Assembly (NCBI GenBank): GCA_049999805.1
Contig: JBNGIO010006283.1
Coordinates: forward strand, 296,742-327,190
DNA length: 30,449 nucleotides
Origin: Folioceros fuciformis
Taxonomy: Eukaryota
Reading direction: 5' to 3'
Shown: one piece after another, positions 16,114 to 26,000 of the stretch
Numbering within the stretch: the stretch's first letter is position 1
Layout: the number at the start of each line of letters is the position of its first letter
Made by a program: the position numbers and the translations under genes
The notes under the pieces: generated by a model
Seen by the model: only the letters and a program-made list of their open reading frames with translations
What the model was told of the DNA's origin: nothing
Database searches by the model: none

Positions 16114-16485
16114 CTAAGCCGAATGCGTACCGCCGACTCCAGCAGCGGGCTTAAACTCCTCCAGCTTCTTGAATTTCTCCCAAGGCTTGACCCAGACGCG
16201 GGCATCCCAGTGGCGAGCCTCATGTCCCTGGTGCGCCTCGATGGTGAGGTGGTAGAGAGTGCCCGCCACCACCTGTGTCTTAGCAGACAGCACCTTGGAG
16301 AAGGAGAGACGCTCGGCGTCGTTGCGGTTGTTATTGTACTCGCTCACCGCGAACTTGGCCAGCTCCTCTACCTCCAGGCTATTCTGCAAGTTAGCGATGT
16401 TCTGCGGGCCTCCCACGAGCGCCATGCTTAACTCCAGGCTCAGACACGCCACCAGCAAAACCAGCAAGACAGCAGCCAGCCGCAT
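16114..16485 (-). CDS. Phytocystatin (secreted cysteine protease inhibitor), single exon, 123 aa
   Basis: Signal peptide, N-terminal GG, LAKFAVSEYN (phytocystatin LARFAV motif), QVVAG reactive loop, VWVKPW. Confidence 0.95.
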   Translation of the reverse strand: MRLAAVLLVLLVACLSLELSMALVGGPQNIANLQNSLEVEELAKFAVSEYNNNRNDAERLSFSKVLSAKTQVVAGTLYHLTIEAHQGHEARHWDARVWVKPWEKFKKLEEFKPAAGVGGTHSA

Positions 16486-16914
16486 TCCAAGATGTCACAC
16501 GCGAATTGAGAGAAATGCGACACCACACACAGGGGCGCAAACCACGACCGCGCCTAGCGTCGAATCTAAATGAGGAGCCTGCTCTGCCTCACAACTCCAG
16601 GCGTGGAGGACAAGTCTAAAAACGTCGAGCAAGCGGAGCCCGGAATGGAATGGACAGGAGCCTATTTCCGGCACACGCGTTCTTCAGAGCGGGTGCCTGG
16701 TGTGGAGCACACACGTCACCCGGTCTGTGGAAACACCTCCAATGTAAAATTTGTAAGTTACATGCTTTAGGGCCCCAACCCTGCTAACCAGGCCGTGTTA
16801 TTGGTATGAAATCATATTTGTTTTGGTTAGTCTCACGATTTGGTTAATCCCATCGTTTGGTCTCACAAACTGTGTGGGTCAGGACGACTTGTGCGCATGT
16901 TCTGTCAGCAGGTG

Positions 16915-17790
16915 AAGCGAAATTCGACGACATCAAAGACGCATGCGAGCTTTTTGAAAGCATGGCCACAAAGGATGTGGTGACATGGAATGCCCTGGTA
17001 TCTGGGCGTGCAAAACGTGAACTCAAAGATGCACGCAAGGGTTTTGACGGAATGAGGACAAAGATGGACAAATGGAGCAGGAGGGGCTGGTTCTGGGTTA
17101 CTTTGTTATACTTTTGCTTGCCTTCTCAAGGGCTGTGGAAGGTTTGGTGACTCAGTAGGGCAAGCAGAGCTGCACTTACTGATTGTTGTCAGAGGACTGC
17201 AAGGTAACCCATCTTGGCGCAACTGCGTGGTGGACATGTATGCACAATGTGGTGGACTGGAAAGTGCACGCCAGGGTTTCGACAGCTTAGGCAAAAAATA
17301 CGAGGTGACATGAGATACCCTAATATGCTGGTATGCACAGCAAGGACTCGGCCACGAGGCGCTCAGTGTACATGGTCAAAAATGGAGGAGGTGAGCCTCA
17401 TTTTGGGTGGTGCTCTTACATTTCCTTGCTCTCTGAGGGCCTGTGGAAGCACGGGTGCGTGTGAGAAAGGATGTAGAGAGCATGGATGCATGTGCGAAGC
17501 AGGAAGGTGGCCATGCACCACACACAAAGGTGGTGTTGAAGCCACTGCATGTCTGAGAAGGAAAAAGAGGATTCGCATTGTGGGCATGCTGAGAAGTTAG
17601 CTTTGGCATCGGTCTCTCGAACACGCCGAGTGGCACACACCTCTGGTCGTCACTAGGAATCTACTCATGTGAGTGATTGCCACAGTTGTATGGAGATCAT
17701 GCCAAAGCTTGAACAGGGCTGACATTGTTGTAAGAAATGGGACCGTGTGCACCGAATGGCTGCTGGTGTCTTTCCTTGGGGATCAGAGTG
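16915..17790 (+). pseudogene. Decayed PLS-class PPR gene with DYW domain of the HAE / 'DYW:KP' type
   Basis: PPR fragments in shifting frames (ACELFESMATKDVVTWNALVSG; NCVVDMYAQCGGLESARQGFDSL; TLICWYAQQGLGHEAL; TFPCSLRACGSTGACEKG) with stops. DYW remnant 17497-17786: KQEGGHAPHTKVVLKPL/SEKEKEDSHCGHAEKLALA/GLSNTPSGT/PLVVTRNLLM/SDCHSCMEIMPKLEQG/DIVVRNG/RVHRMAAGV, with at least six frameshifts. Confidence 0.88.
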
Positions 17791-17920
17791 CTTACTGAAT
17801 TCCATCTCTGGAGAAACTGAGACTTGCACAGGCAAACCCTAAACCCGATCATCGTAACACAGAGGATCAAATCCGAAAGAATCGATTATACCTGGTAGTC
17901 TGAGAAGTCCATGTCCTACT

Positions 17921-20900
17921 TTAGCATGACAAGATGATGGGTTTCAATCTCATGGCTTGCTGAGGTACCACTGCGGATTCGATTTCAGAGTATTGAGCTA
18001 TCAAATCGTCCACTTGATCTGCCAAACATTAATACTTCCTGTTATACACAAGTATTTGCCTGTAGGTTTTATTATCAACATTCAAACTTATTAAATTCTC
18101 AAACATCCATTACCGGAGCAGATATCAAAGTCACTTATTTCCATATACTGTTGGTAGTGATGAACAAAAACGCGCTTCTTGTATAGCTTGTTAAAGGTGT
18201 CCCTCATGGTTCTGAGTTTGTTGCTGTTCAAGTTTTACACCACACATGAAACAATAACAAAATCTAAAATAATTTTATATAATCTAAAAAATCTGCCACA
18301 ACCATAAAAATACAACACACACCCACACACACGCTATTTTGATATACCTGAAAGCTGTGTTATTTGCAAGACAAAGAAGTGATAGATTGGCATTCATTGG
18401 AGGTTGGTGACATATTCCAATTTTAAAACTTTCCTTGTTCCAATGCACCTACAGTATGAGCTTTGTAGTTGACATCAAATCTAATTATTTTTGCATACTT
18501 AAGGAAAGAGCTTAATCCAAGACTTGAAATCAACCAATGCTAATGCATTACCATTCTAAATCGGTGTTTCATACGTTGTAGATTGTGGCTCAAATCAGAA
18601 ACATTGCACACAACTCCTCGTAAAAGAAGAGCGCATCCCAAGTACGTAGCACAAGAAGGATTAACTTTCAACAATTGGCTTTCCTTTGCAAACACCTCAT
18701 TGAACATCTGTGCACCCAGTTCTCACTTTCAGCATGAGATAGTTTGCACTTAGTATACATAAAATGATAAATATTTCTCTTACTTAGACAGCACAGCGAA
18801 TTCAAGTTCTTGTTGCAACACGAACTCACTTGATCCACTCCTTGAGTTTGGGATGTTACTTTATCTGGGGCAAACAAAGATGGGACAATGAAAAAACAAG
18901 CTATGCCAAAACTTTATAAGTATATCTTGCTCATGTTTGTATAATCTCTTAGACCTTACCACAAATTTGTTGCTCCATGTTCAGTGGTGCCATACTGGAA
19001 AGGAGGAAATGTAGCTTGGGGAATGGAACAAGATTGGCTGTAATCTCATTCATGTCCACTTGGTGTTTCAAGGCAGCAAACAACATTAAGCAGCCATGGT
19101 AAGATCGTGATATTATAATGAGAAAATTTATTAAAAAATCACCTAGTTTTGTACTTTACTGCAACATTGTCAGGACCTACCATTTAATGGTCCTTCAAAT
19201 CGAATGGAGCTTGTCAAATTTAGCAAGAGGTTAGCTGCTATTTCATTCATGGAATCAAATGCTTGCAACTTCATCTTCGATTTTGTTCTCGATGTACAAA
19301 AATTTTGCTTTACAACCCAAGCTTCATTTTTTCTAGCCAGAAGAATATCTATATGTAAGAACAAATGGCTCCGAAAGAAAGAAATACTTCTCAAACGAAT
19401 GACTTCATAGAAAACTATGCATACCTGACGATATCAAATAATGCTTGGTTCTCAAGAGGAAGAACACAATCCACATGTTCAGCTAAAGTCGCAGTGGAAA
19501 GAACACTACTTAAAAAATCACCAAAGATAAATAAATGAAACACATAAAACCATGTGGGTATGATTTGTATGGACGAATATGATTGCAGCATCACCTACCT
19601 GTTGTAAGGGGATGTCACGACATCGTCATCCACTGATGGATAGATTGATGTTGTCAATCTATACAGTTTAGGATATATATCCTGACAATATGTAAAGGAA
19701 ATTAATATTTTATTTAAATATTCTTTTAGAATTAATTTTTAAAGAGCATGAAGAAAACATGACCTACATGTAGAGTCTCCATTACATAGCTTCCAAGACC
19801 TGAGCCTGTACCTCCACCTAGTGAATGTAGCAAAAAAAAGCTTTGGGGGGATTCACACCGTTCTACCTACAAACAAAAAAAAACACATCCTTAATCTTTA
19901 TATAAAAAATATCATGGTTTGTTGACCTTAAAGCTTCATACAATCTTTTAAAAAATATTGAAGCCGACTGGTAATTTTTTTGAAGTTTGAAATAAGAGAG
20001 GGAGAAATATATAAATACTATACTATATGTGTTAATCTTGTACCTCGATTCGTATCTTTTCAAGTATCCTATCGATATATTGAGGTCCATATAGTCCGTA
20101 TCCATGAGCCCTAGATTAAGAGAGCATGACACAAAGATGAAATAAAATCAAGCAAAATAATATAAGCATAAAAATTAAGTAAGGAGTGTACCCACCAGTT
20201 GTTCCCAGACCCTGATGTTCCAGCTAGCAGTTGTTTTGAGTCAAAAAGATCAGAAATATTTCCCTACATTAAATAAGAAAGAAAGAAAGAAAGGAGAAAT
20301 AATTATTCAAAGTAAAGTAAAATAAAATAATAACGGACTTAAACATCAACAACTTACTCGTAGTACAGTGTTGATAACATTTTCTTCCATATCGATCAAA
20401 ATTGTTCTAGCCTGTGACACACCATTACGTTGTAGTTCAGGAAGACAGACTTAAGACTCCTGCTGGAGCAGGGCTGTAGAGAAGCTCAACAATAATTGAT
20501 CTAACCTTCAAGGAATGAATAGGAGTATCGCCTGCTCCAACAGGTAGGTCCAGGGGAGGATCGTGGCGGCTATCAACATGCCTGAAGAAGCTGTACAAGT
20601 CATAAGATTAAGATGTTTAGTTAATTAAGTGAAGGAGGGAGGTGAAATCCAAACTGTTGTGCCATTCCAACAAAGCTAATCAGAGTCAGACGCTTGCTTT
20701 CCTGCTCAGAGCGTGATCGTAAGCTGCTTTGGTATTGCAGGTGGCATGCTCCCTGAGAGCCAGTTCCCAAAACCGGCAGCCCACCTTGCAGGAGACCAAA
20801 ACAAAACAACAGAGGGCAAGAATTGGAAGTCAGGCAATGTGCTGTTAACAGCATGGGGAGAAGGCTCAGCTCCATGATTGCAAGGCATGGATCCAGTACT

Positions 20901-20973
20901 GGCCAGCCGGAATTGGAAGTAGTACCTGATTGCCGCATTGACCGCACTGGATGGTAATAATCTCGCGAGGCAT
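17921..20973 (-). CDS. TUBE1: Epsilon-tubulin (centriole/basal-body tubulin, BLD2/TUBE1 homolog), 472 aa, 16 exons
   Basis: Exons 20973-20926, 20784-20702, 20590-20506, 20411-20358, 20263-20196, 20110-20044, 19866-19768, 19681-19599, 19505-19425, 19332-19181, 19058-18960, 18864-18830, 18707-18552, 18448-18348, 18223-18114, 18018-17921 (1419 nt, phases consistent). MPREIITIQCGQCGNQVG, ALSSFFRHVD, IDMEE, SGSGNNWAHG, HSLGGGTGSGLG, DDDVVTSPYN, RFEGPLNVDMNEI, LANNT, FNKLYKKRVFVHHYQQYME. Intron 2 needs a GA donor. Confidence 0.93.
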
Positions 20974-21002
20974 GCTATGCTATGCTATGCTATGCTATGC
21001 TA
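20974..21002. repeat. (GCTAT)n / (ATAGC)n pentanucleotide microsatellite, ~6 units, abutting the epsilon-tubulin start codon
   Basis: gctat gctat gctat gctat gctat gcta directly after the CAT at 20971-20973. Confidence 0.9.
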
Positions 21003-21818
21003 GGCTGCTTTCTTCAACTTCTTGTCAAGAAGCTTCAAGACTGTCTTCTCCAAGAAGCAAACGCCAAGCTCGAAGGCTGACAGTTTTTGCAGTGACAGGT
21101 CAAGTTGGGTGGCCAAGATGTATTCGTTACGTACACTGTATACAGCTCTGAACCTGAAAAGTAAAGTGGTGTCAATAAGTATGCGTGGGAGTAGGTGTGT
21201 TTGGTGGTGGGGAGAGTGATACGCGAAGCAAGAAGGCTGATTACCTATGGCGCGAGTGCGAGTGCAAGTGAGCAATTCTTGCAGTCTGTGTTGAATCCAG
21301 TGCCTCGCGGGGAGTTTCGATCACTCGTGTACGCTCCTGTCCATGGCTTTTGCGGGGAACTCTCACCTTCGTGCACCAGCTGTAGCTACGGATTCTGGGT
21401 ATGGCACGGAAGGCTGCTGGGAGGTAGGTCTAATGGCCTTCGAGGCGTAGTCGGGTTTGAGGCTGGCTGCCTTGATCGATCGTTGCCTGCCTGCCTCACG
21501 TATCAGGCCGGCTCGCAGAAGAGCCGTTTCCCGGTGACTTCATGTACGGATTTTGCAGGGAGAGGAAATGGATGAGAGCGCAGGAGGTCATGGGGCTACT
21601 GTATGTAGTGGTGGGCCTGGACACTGGAAACGTTCCCCCAAAGGTAATGAAGATAAATGAAGAAAAACGAGAAGAAATAGTGTGGTGAGGGACGCTGTGA
21701 CCGGGAGCGACCCTCCCGGAGGGTGACTGAACACAGTGTGGACGTCGTACCGAATCGGAAACAGCAACCAACGGTAGCCAGACAGACTTGCTCTAAGCTC
21801 TTGATGACCAAGGCTGCC

Positions 21819-22455
21819 ATGGCCGCCGTGACCAACGCCTGTGCTTCCACCTGCTGCCTCGCGCGCGCCTTCGCCATCGCCAGCCACAGCCCCAGCTGCA
21901 GCTCCTGCCCCAGCCCCAGCCCCTATGCCACCGCCAGCTGCAGCAGTTCCAGCCTAGGGTCAGCAAGGCTCCAATCAGGGCCTCGATTTGTGTCGCTGCG
22001 AGCAGAGCCGCTGCCACTTCCGCTGCCGCGGAAACGGAAATGGCAGGTGTGTGCGGCGGCCAAGAAGGCGGCCAGCGTAGGGGTGTCGGAGTTCGAGTCG
22101 GTGGTGCTCAAGTCGGAGGTGCCGGTGCTGGTGGATTTCTGGGCCGAATGGTGCGGGCCTTGCAAGCTGGTGGCACCNNNNNNNNNNNNNNNNNNNNNNN
22201 NNNNNNNNNNNNNNNNNNNNNNNNNNNNNNNNNNNNNNNNNNNNNNNNNNNNNNNNNNNNNNNNNNNNNNNNNNNNNGGTGGAAGCTGGCCGCGACCAAT
22301 CGCTGCTTGAGAGGTATGGCATTTACGGCCTACCGGCTTTGATCATCTTCAAAGATGGCCAGGAAGTGTCGGGGAGTCGGAAAGAAGGAGCCATTTCCCG
22401 CCAGAAACTGGAGGCTTTGATCAACGACATCTTGCCTACCCTGGTGTCCAACTGA
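21819..22455 (+). CDS. TRX-x: Plastid thioredoxin x (interrupted by assembly gap; alternative ATG at 21804)
   Basis: Ser/Ala-rich transit peptide, [29 protein letters not shown]. After the gap: [32 protein letters not shown]...stop at 22453-22455. YGLP and SRxEGAI are x-type hallmarks. Confidence 0.9.
22178..22277. other. Assembly gap (100 N)
   Basis: A run of exactly 100 n inside the thioredoxin gene. Confidence 0.99.
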
Positions 22456-23067: not shown

Positions 23068-26000
23068 TCAGCCATAGCTCGCAATTAAGTCGTCCATCTC
23101 CTGCAGCACATCGAAGGAGCCCGTGCCGGATTCCACGACACGGCCCATGACGATACGGGAGGAGGGAGATTCCAAAGTGTCGATTTCCTGCTGCAGGGTG
23201 GCATCCACAAGGAAGCTCGTGGCCGTCTCAAAGCTCATCTTGAGAAAGGGAGAGTGGCTGGACTGGATCCCACTTCTGTTGAATCCCCGAAAGCCTCCGC
23301 CGGAGGTCATGAAATCGGCAATGAGACCCAAGTGACGGCTGTTCACAACAATACCGTACAGCCCAAACACGGCTTGCACCTCCGACAATATTGTCGCCCG
23401 AGCAGCTTCCACCCCGTACACCTGAAGCATGGCTGCAATGCTGTTTGTGGTTAGCCTGCTTATATCTAAATCCTCATGAAACGCCCACAGTCCCTCAAAG
23501 TTGACACCATCTGCCTGCAAGGCTGGGATGTTGGGATCGCCTTTGTAGTCAATCACCGCACACCGTTCGATACCTGCAACAGACCGCACCGTCACGTGCC
23601 TGGCCACCTTCTCAACAATCTGCGAGTACGTTCACACCACTCATTAATACAGGCACCCTAGCTGATCATGCACGCACCATCTGCACAAATGATGTTACCT
23701 CTGTCAACATGATCGGAGGATGTTTCTTTTTCACAGTCAATCGGATCTCGAACATTGACCCCTTGGCAGAGAACATGTTCTCTAGATCACTTTCTTTCTT
23801 CATCCCTTTCCCAACTCCACCAGTGGAAGGTGGTTTCACGTAAGCTTGATGTACACTGCTTCTTCCACTCGATTCTCCTTCCGCGTCATCAACATCACTA
23901 TCAGGCTCAGCAGTTCCTCCATTGCTCGTCAGGTCCCTCTTCCCCTGCCGTTGTCCCTCTTCCTCCACCTCCTCCATGATTGTGTCTTCCCCTTCGAACG
24001 AATTCTTCGCAATTGTCTCCTCTTCCTCATCTTCCATATCATCATATCCTCTCTCGTCAGTCCCTTGACCTCTCCTCTTCTCTGCGTCAGCACCTTCTTC
24101 GTCTATATCCTCGTCCTCGTCCTCTTCCTCCTCATCATCTTGGCCTTTTTTCTTCGCCCCAGCGTTTTCAATATCTGGCCTTTCAGCATCTCCAGGTGGC
24201 TCCTCTTTGCTGCCCTCGGATTGAGAAACAGTTGTAATTTGCACAGCTTCGCCTCGAGTTTTGCCTGAAGCTGCGAAGGCCCGACTCATCTCTTTCGACA
24301 GCCGAGGACAAAATTGGTTACGAACTACCTCCTCGCACTCTTCTAATCCAAGGTTCAGATATGCTGGGAACCTTTCTGGAGGAAAGAGGTGCAGCTTCAC
24401 CACGTAGCCTCTATGGGCCACACCGTTGTGCACCAAGAAGGGCACTTCGGAGACTTCAACCCTATCAAGAACATCTGATAGCCTAAGTTTTCTCAGTTGC
24501 GAGGCTATTCTCTCTGCATCATCCCTGGGTGCCAGCAGCAAACAAGTAACCAAATCGACACAGAATCAGCTAGCTCTTGCTCAGAAAATAAGGGCAAGAC
24601 AGCAGTTCTGAATTGAACAGATCAAAAGACATCCAGCTGAAGTTTGTCAGAATCCACACCTTGTTCTACCAGCTTGCAATGGGCACGTCATGATAGGTGT
24701 AGATATCTCCTTTGATGCAGTCATTAAAATTTCGCGAAGGCGCGGAATGCCAAGAGTCACATTCATCTCTCCACGTCCAGCAAAGTGGAAAGTGTTCAAC
24801 CTGTATCATGCAATGTTTGCACACAAATGAGCCCAAGGCACCCATCCCGCATGAGCGCTGGTGAAGTCAATTATTTTACACAAGACTTATCAGTTTAGCC
24901 TTCCAACAAAGAAACTTACGTCATTTGTGTCGACGGCTCACCGACAGATTGGGCAGCAACCACACCCACTGGTTCCCCTGGGTTGGCAAGACTTGACACA
25001 TACTTCATTTCCATCAACTTCTTGAAGTTTTCCTTCTGATAAGTATGTCGCAGCTGCATATGTTTCCTTTCTTGTCTTGAGAAAGAGTCCACACGTGCAA
25101 GAAAGTCATCCAGCTCCTGCATGTATGCTTCTGATAAACTCTCGAGGGATTCACTGTTCTGAGCATCAACCTTCACAGACCGTCTCTTTTTCTTCTTGCT
25201 ACTCTTCTCCAGACAGGATTGCAGCAAGTCGTCTCTGCCCAAGCGAGTTGCCACCAGATCTTGGTTCTACAGGAGGGAAAAACAAGTGCATTTAGATCAC
25301 AACCCTCCTGCACATTTCAGACGTCACTGCATGAGAAGGAAGGCACAGGGAATCTCAGTATCTCACAAGCGCAAGTCTCTCAAACTGTTCCAGAAATCCA
25401 GATTTTGTTACATCCACACCATCTTCTCCATAGCGAAACTGTATGATGGAATTGTCAGAGTCTCGCACAGTGTAATCATAGTGCACTTTCAATGACTCAA
25501 GATGTTTCACAAGACATCTTTGTAGATAGCCACTGCTTGATGTCTTCACCGCCGTGTCTACCAGTCTGTACGACAGGTTGCAGTATAAGAATCGATACAA
25601 AGGGTGGTAAACAAACAAAAGAACACACTCGTCTGTTAAGCATATCAAATCTGGTCTTACCCATCGCGACCTGCCATGCAATGAAAGTAGTATTCCTGAG
25701 GCCTTAAGCCAGTCAAAAAACGATCACTGATAAAGCCACCTGCCCGAGCTCCAGTATCCCAAGCAGGAAAGCATGGCAGAGTCTTGCCCGAAGCCATACG
25801 TGGTACACGCTTCCCCTCCAGCTCTTGCTGGCCTAAAAGGGAAGAAATCTGAGTGAAGTTTACCTGCAGATGTGAGCACAGTAAGTATCCCCACCAACCT
25901 GTGACATCATTCATGTTGTCTCAGCTAGAGGGAAGCTTCCAAGAAGAGAGATTGGATAGCTGAACAGGTTTGTGCTCACCAAACCACCCTTTGCCCCTGT

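Follow-up and report, generated by a model that had tools for sequence, protein, structure and literature searches.

Can a plant intron whose donor reads GA instead of GT be removed correctly, or does such a donor mark a damaged allele or an error in the sequence? The question is raised by intron 2 of a predicted epsilon-tubulin gene in a stretch of 30,449 nucleotides (nt) of Folioceros fuciformis DNA (GenBank assembly GCA_049999805.1, contig JBNGIO010006283.1, positions 296,742 to 327,190 of the forward strand). The whole stretch is called the window, and positions are counted from its first letter. The epsilon-tubulin family serves the triplet microtubules of basal bodies and centrioles of flagellated sperm. 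An earlier note on the same DNA, made from the letters alone, had described the intron as GA-AG and had listed three explanations: a genuine rare intron, which it placed first and regarded as a possible splicing throttle on a sperm-specific gene, a recent loss-of-function allele, and a base-call error. According to the present analysis intron 2 (20701..20591, minus strand) is probably a genuine GA-AG intron that is removed by the major (U2-type) spliceosome, and the probability of this reading is put at about 0.75.

Splice sites of intron 2

On the minus strand the text across the intron is ...GCT CTG AGC AG/GAAAGCAAGC...TTGTACAG/C TTC TTC AGG, with slashes at the two cuts. The intron is 111 nt long, lies in phase 2, has the ends GA..AG and a G+C content of 0.39; re-reading it from the sequence gave the same ends and the same coordinates as had been claimed. 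Exon 2 (20784-20702, 83 nt) closes with the bases AG, which open codon 44, and the first base of exon 3 (20590-20506, 85 nt), a C, completes this codon (AGC, Ser) before FFRHVD. The plus-strand letters are T at 20700 and C at 20701, and it is the T at 20700 that makes the donor non-canonical, with A at +2. The donor site is CAG/GAAAGC (-3 to +6; 20696..20704, minus strand). The acceptor region ...CATCTTAATCTTATGACTTGTACAG/ (20591..20615, minus strand) ends in a canonical AG and contains the branch-like motif TTAAT. Branch-like motifs, recognized as motifs only, put an A 17 nt (TTAAT) or 30 nt (TTAAC) from the acceptor. Over its last 40 nt the intron has a pyrimidine fraction of 0.55, which lies inside the span of 0.40 to 0.80 for the introns of the gene. 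If intron 2 is retained, an in-frame TGA at 20688-20686 (minus strand) ends the protein after residue 48, and the read-through contains four stops.

All frame-open donor/acceptor pairs in 20784-20506 were enumerated, with GT, GC and GA donors paired to AG, AT paired to AC, and introns of at least 30 nt. There are 23 such pairs (3 GT-AG, 9 GC-AG, 3 AT-AC and 8 GA-AG). Of the GT dinucleotides, just the one at 20773 keeps the frame; the closest GC dinucleotides stand at 20705 and 20693. Each of the 15 GT-AG, GC-AG and AT-AC options deletes or replaces conserved residues (for example VGCRFWELALRDFFR...), and every canonical alternative junction was rejected for this loss. The GA at 20701 with the AG at 20591 is the only pair of the 23 that yields ...DHALSSFFRHVD... 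/ ...AAYDHALSSFFRHVDSR..., the conserved ALSSFF segment. The claim that GA is the sole fitting donor is borne out by this enumeration.

The donor was scored against textbook versions of the donor consensus and of the 5' end of U1 small nuclear RNA (snRNA). It matches the consensus at seven of nine positions, and at six of seven outside +1 and +2; by the latter count it shares first place among the 15 donors of the gene with that of intron 8. The estimated duplex with the U1 5' end has -6.3 kcal/mol with one internal mismatch, which is rank 8 of 15 (the median). Two other routes of removal were considered and rejected. For a U12-type intron, removed by the minor spliceosome, the donor GAAAGCAAG (intron start GAAAGCAAGC) is unlike the RTATCCTT box, compared by eye. 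Editing of the donor from A to I or from C to U cannot turn GA into GU, and no nuclear editing is known to convert A to U.

Transcript and DNA evidence

Of six listed public sequencing runs, four (X1-X4) had their contigs aligned over 17800-21100. Runs X1, X2 and X4 are of DNA type and come from one sample (S1) of one study (P1, 2025). Run X3 comes from sample S2 of study P2 (2017), is labeled 'RNA?' by guess, and contains 0.15 of the words. X4 gave short repeat-like pieces only, and X5 and X6 contain next to none of the words. None of the listed runs is recorded as RNA, and X3 was taken as RNA from its missing introns.

The earlier note had proposed to look for the joined exons 2 and 3 in RNA. 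The junction is present in one contig of X3 (record 10), which is 923 nt long with a word depth of 14.1 and comes from another sample than the DNA runs. The contig aligns with continuous record positions and no other letters in the pieces 20924-21100, 20702-20782, 20505-20590, 20357-20410, 20195-20262 and 20041-20109, so that five successive introns are removed. At intron 2 it joins 20590 to 20702 and skips exactly 111 bases with the plus-strand ends CT..TC (= GA..AG), with 81 letters on the shorter side of the joint. This exact skip, which restores the conserved motif, supports the reading that the earlier note had placed first. The joints of introns 1, 3 and 5 have plus-strand CT..AC, which is GT..AG on the gene strand; removal of intron 4 follows from the continuity of the record, a repeat being masked there. 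The joint of intron 2 has CAG to its left and to its right and can therefore be shifted by three bases, which allows the placements GA..AG, GG..CA, AG..AC and CA..TA. None of the four is canonical, and only GA..AG keeps both a G at +1 and an AG acceptor.

In the DNA runs one X1 contig (word depth 11.2) spans 20338-21100, and two X2 contigs (word depths 7.59 and 9.18) span 20338-20748 and 20728-21100, all with no other letters and no gaps. At 20700, where the earlier note had advised inspection of genomic reads, the contigs of both runs show no letter other than the T of the assembly. The X1 and X2 contigs run through the introns unchanged. The joined form is thus absent from that DNA, which indicates that the X3 contig is derived from spliced RNA. 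X3 contigs cover exons 1-6 and the 3' end (17800-18096), and over these 832 covered bases X3 has no differences from the assembly. The sample of X3 and that of the DNA are therefore close, which leaves a single base such as +2 unsettled.

The junction in the protein family

The junction was compared with 120 listed homologues, mostly from green algae. Codon 44, which is split by intron 2, is Ser in 111 of them. Residues 45 and 46 are each Phe in 116, the other four rows being gaps, and from residue 40 to residue 48 every row is free of insertions. S44, F45 and F46 are thus kept without indel, and the GA..AG junction restores the sequence of the family exactly. The match of the junction to the conserved motif exceeds chance, and the RNA-like contig has the very same joint.

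In 141 columns of the same alignment, taken as highly conserved, 108 or more of the 120 homologues agree. The predicted protein has changes at 16 of them, where two orthologues from land plants have 11 and 10, and it thus does not present a picture of decay. Beside the junction, residue 48 (20576-20578, minus strand) gives FFRHVD where the family has FFRNVD, with Asn in 115 of 120 homologues. This His is one of the 16 conserved-column changes on the long branch of the protein.

Gene model and identity

The gene model was assembled from exon borders read in the sequence. Its coding region extends from the ATG at 20973 to the stop TAA at 17923-17921 on the minus strand and has 16 exons and 15 introns, with a coding sequence of 1419 nt and 472 residues without internal stop. 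Besides exons 2 and 3, the exons, all on the minus strand, are located at 20973-20926 (exon 1), 20411-20358 (exon 4), 20263-20196 (exon 5), 20110-20044 (exon 6), 19866-19768 (exon 7), 19681-19599 (exon 8), 19505-19425 (exon 9), 19332-19181 (exon 10), 19058-18960 (exon 11), 18864-18830 (exon 12), 18707-18552 (exon 13), 18448-18348 (exon 14), 18223-18114 (exon 15) and 18018-17921 (exon 16, which includes the stop TAA). The other 14 introns are all GT-AG and 85-177 nt long. The 14 ordinary introns and the 472-residue frame of the earlier note were thus reproduced when the model was rebuilt from the coordinates. Exons 7-15 have no X3 contig cover, and introns 6-15 are therefore placed by frame and homology alone.

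Translated on its own, exon 7 matches the Pfam family Tubulin (PF00091; E 3.2e-9, 37.8 bits, cut-off 33), and by this match the Tubulin/FtsZ GTPase domain, the one with the GGGTGSG loop, is present. Exons 11, 13 and 14 match Tubulin_C (PF03953) at profile positions 1-18, 29-76 and 83-116, in collinear order; queried singly, they score 13.9, 22.2 and 23.8 bits, each under the cut-off of 26.6. Homologues that align end to end with the model carry both PF00091 and PF03953. The model has 57.9% identity to Physcomitrium protein P0084 (residues 1-471), 56.9% to Riccia protein P0078, named 'Tubulin epsilon chain' (residues 1-469), and 58.0% to Klebsormidium protein P0042, named 'Epsilon tubulin' (residues 1-459). 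The Pfam matches and these 57-58% full-length identities to named epsilon tubulins agree with the identity that had been proposed from the sequence. In a maximum-likelihood tree of 24 rows, all of epsilon type (alpha, beta, gamma and delta tubulins were left out), the model groups with the moss and liverwort rows with a support of 100/99. Its end branch is 0.65, as against 0.37 for the moss and 0.33 for the liverwort. By these comparisons the gene is a land-plant epsilon-tubulin that is close to neither Physcomitrium nor Riccia.

A metagenome scan with exon 10 found 21 epsilon-tubulin loci of distant green-algal or other eukaryotic origin. When the spliced model was aligned to them with tblastn, 14 of the 21 matched in one uninterrupted piece (from residue 1, 6 or 7 to 468) with 48-52% identity; of the remainder, four are cut by contig ends, two match in three pieces and one, L001, in nine. 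L001 (134-3111) is an intron-rich epsilon-tubulin and the best match of exon 10 (72% over residues 246-299). A single piece of it spans residues 33-64, with no intron at the position of intron 2. Nothing informative on the ancestry of the GA donor was found among the 21 loci, 14 of which are intronless here, L001 being without an intron at the site. The uninterrupted algal open reading frame (ORF) of another of these loci, L005, served as query for a protein collection; it matches proteins named epsilon tubulin by their sources from Micromonas, Klebsormidium nitens, Riccia fluitans and many animals. Queries made of one exon each gave no protein match at E <= 0.001 (52 residues, eight word-sharing candidates; 50 residues, two candidates), a null of little weight because such short queries hardly reach E <= 0.001 against 5.8 billion sequences. 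A search of PDB sequences with exon 10 gave only weak tubulin matches (best E 0.29) and no epsilon-tubulin entry.

Comparison with known GA-AG introns

Intron 2 is a further case of a rare kind of intron that is already documented. In the annotations of five plants, between 0 and 14 introns per genome are reported as GA-AG, a share of 0.00-0.01% (PMC10668435). In a survey of 121 plant genomes all minor non-canonical combinations together amount to 0.09% (Pucker and Brockington 2018, PMC6310983). Intron 2 falls into this class, and it is one step from GT-AG; combinations of this one-step type are reported there as the commonest within the class. GA-AG by name has no occurrence in the main text of that survey, and a literature search for GA-AG introns in moss, fern or liverwort found nothing relevant among the papers listed.

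A close parallel is intron 12 of SYMRK in Trema orientalis, which has a GA donor and is reported to be spliced to about 95%, compared with 99.9% for the GC donor of a relative (PMC10668435). The GA allele is described as fully functional, and the same change works when it is put into Parasponia (PMC10668435). Both introns lie in plant nuclear genes, are short (118 nt in Trema, 111 nt here) and combine a GA donor with an AG acceptor. Both genes have only ordinary introns besides, a correctly spliced transcript and an intact frame. As reported, only the Trema case has DNA and RNA from the same plant, a measured efficiency, a known ancestral GC and a genetic test of function.

In animals, the human FGFR genes have a GA 5' splice site that is used efficiently by the major spliceosome (Brackenridge et al. 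2003, as cited in PMC7072748). As in those genes, the GA donor of intron 2 stands in an otherwise ordinary gene; unlike the FGFR case as described there, no GT occurs in the last 70 bases of exon 2. For Eurytemora affinis and for Oikopleura dioica GA-AG introns are reported to be frequent, with AG upstream and A downstream of the GA; in one of these animals they make up 3.2% of the supported sites, and a variant U1 snRNA has been proposed (PMC7072748). Intron 2 has the same surroundings, with an AG preceding the cut and an A following the GA. In contrast to the genome-wide habit reported for these animals, it is one of 15 introns in the epsilon-tubulin gene, and the GA donor is known here from one gene.

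Interpretation

The near-consensus donor, the mid-rank U1 duplex and the absence of a minor-spliceosome box argue for removal by the major spliceosome, with a strong context offsetting the A at +2. The U1 small nuclear ribonucleoprotein would still find the donor through the CAG before the cut and the A, A and G at +3 to +5, so that +2 would be the one internal mismatch. Both catalytic steps would then be possible through the invariant G at +1 together with the canonical AG acceptor. Splicing efficiency might be somewhat under the level of a GT site, as in the sole plant case measured, and the product would be a normal full-length epsilon-tubulin.

Several points weigh against this reading. 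The RNA-like contig (S2) and the DNA contigs (S1) differ in sample and in study, and intron 2 lies outside the X3 contigs, so that the RNA plant may have another letter at +2; since the samples differ, splicing of the GA allele itself is a deduction from one to the other. The RNA label of X3 is a guess, its RNA nature being concluded from the missing introns, and the support consists of one assembled contig of one run, not of raw reads. Contigs drop rare forms, and neither efficiency nor intron retention can therefore be read from them. X1 and X2 are possibly the source of the assembly itself and so not independent of it. The genomic donor was read in this plant alone, with no orthologue of a related plant in the comparison. 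Finally, published counts put GA-AG at about 1 in 10,000 of the annotated introns of plants, at which frequency a recent mutation of a donor is not much less likely a priori.

Such a recent mutation is the alternative that survives best, and it is considered unlikely. It would be a change from T to A at +2, private to the accession or polymorphic, with GT in the X3 plant, poor or no splicing of the GA form, and a weak or null allele as the result. The difference between the X3 sample (S2/P2, 2017) and that of X1 and X2 (S1/P1, 2025), together with the missing X3 cover of the intron, leaves room for it, and the donor is one base off the consensus, as a fresh mutation would be. Within-species variation is named as needed to separate bona fide sites from recent mutations (Pucker and Brockington, PMC6310983), and the end branch of the model is longer than those of moss and liverwort. 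This alternative fits poorly with a 472-residue frame that is intact over 16 exons, with a number of changed conserved columns (16 of 141) near those of the land-plant orthologues (11 and 10), and with the identity of X3 and assembly over 832 bases. A null allele is further opposed by the report that a near-consensus GA donor can work, the GC-to-GA change in Parasponia SYMRK being fully functional (PMC10668435), and even a recent change need not make the allele null. The loss-of-function option of the earlier note is thus weakened, and it stands only because the RNA and the DNA are from different samples.

More doubtful is the idea that the GA donor is a fixed and selectively kept feature of the lineage, a deliberately weak or specially recognized site that would restrict epsilon-tubulin production to spermatogenesis, the stage at which basal bodies form de novo. 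In that case recognition of the donor would perhaps fall to a variant U1 snRNA or to some tissue-specific factor.

A base-call or assembly error with GT as the true donor is very improbable. A single base off the consensus has the look of an error, and X1 and X2 may be the same data as the assembly; the separately assembled contigs of these two runs nevertheless have no other letters and no gaps at the donor, and because the two runs, although from one sample, agree, the base-call error suggested earlier has become unlikely.

Least credible of all is a joint that arose when the reverse transcriptase switched template, or the assembly jumped, from one CAG triplet to the other, or another removal route such as the minor spliceosome or donor editing: the 3-base direct repeat CAG at the joint is a microhomology such as occurs at template switches, and template switching and editing are mentioned as conceivable sources of apparent GA-AG sites (Frey and Pucker, PMC7072748), but the jump would have had to land by chance where a motif kept in 111-116 of 120 homologues is restored without indel, and to delete the in-frame stops as well, on a contig that has four ordinary GT-AG junctions, while the minor spliceosome would face a donor unlike its box; with so exact a match to the motif, and with four ordinary junctions beside it, an artefact is very unlikely.

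Taken as a genuine GA-AG intron, intron 2 matters chiefly for correct annotation. A gene finder restricted to GT and GC donors would shorten this epsilon-tubulin, splice it wrongly or label it a pseudogene, and the plant could then be recorded as having lost a conserved marker of motile sperm. For plants, where very few such cases are listed, intron 2 is one more GA-AG intron with transcript support, here in a seed-free land plant, and it is a further example of a donor in perfect context that tolerates A at +2. A new question would arise only if the site proves to be conserved or regulated.

Neighboring features

A pentanucleotide repeat of about seven AGCAT units (20974-21012, minus strand) abuts the start codon, and 20963-21012 is masked as repeat. 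Upstream lies a reading frame at 21681-22455 (plus strand) with a WCGPC motif, oriented away from the tubulin gene and split by the N gap 22178-22277, which has 100 bases and is the sole run of N in the window. From this motif we take the frame to be a thioredoxin-like candidate. Record 10 of X3 extends 388 letters upstream of 21100; these extra letters suggest either that transcription begins some 500 nt or more ahead of the ATG, or that the transcript overlaps the region shared with the divergent thioredoxin-like gene. At the other end of the gene, record 9 of X3 (763 nt) starts in the last intron (18113-18019), runs unspliced through the last exon and continues below 17800. It could reflect retention of the last intron, residual DNA or pre-mRNA, or a transcript from the neighboring region that overlaps the gene.

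Downstream of the tubulin gene and on the same strand, an ORF at 16114-16494 (minus strand) has a signal-like start and a QVVAG motif; it resembles a plant cystatin by this motif and is presumed to be a candidate of that kind. Between these two lie short open frames at 16848-17313 (plus strand) with pentatricopeptide-like text (...DVVTWNALVSG..., ...MYAQCGGLESARQGF...), broken by stops, which may be a degraded or intron-containing pentatricopeptide repeat gene. An open frame of 187 residues at 23068-23631 (minus strand) resembles the C-terminal part of a large subunit of nuclear RNA polymerase, and we take it to be a candidate for such a gene.

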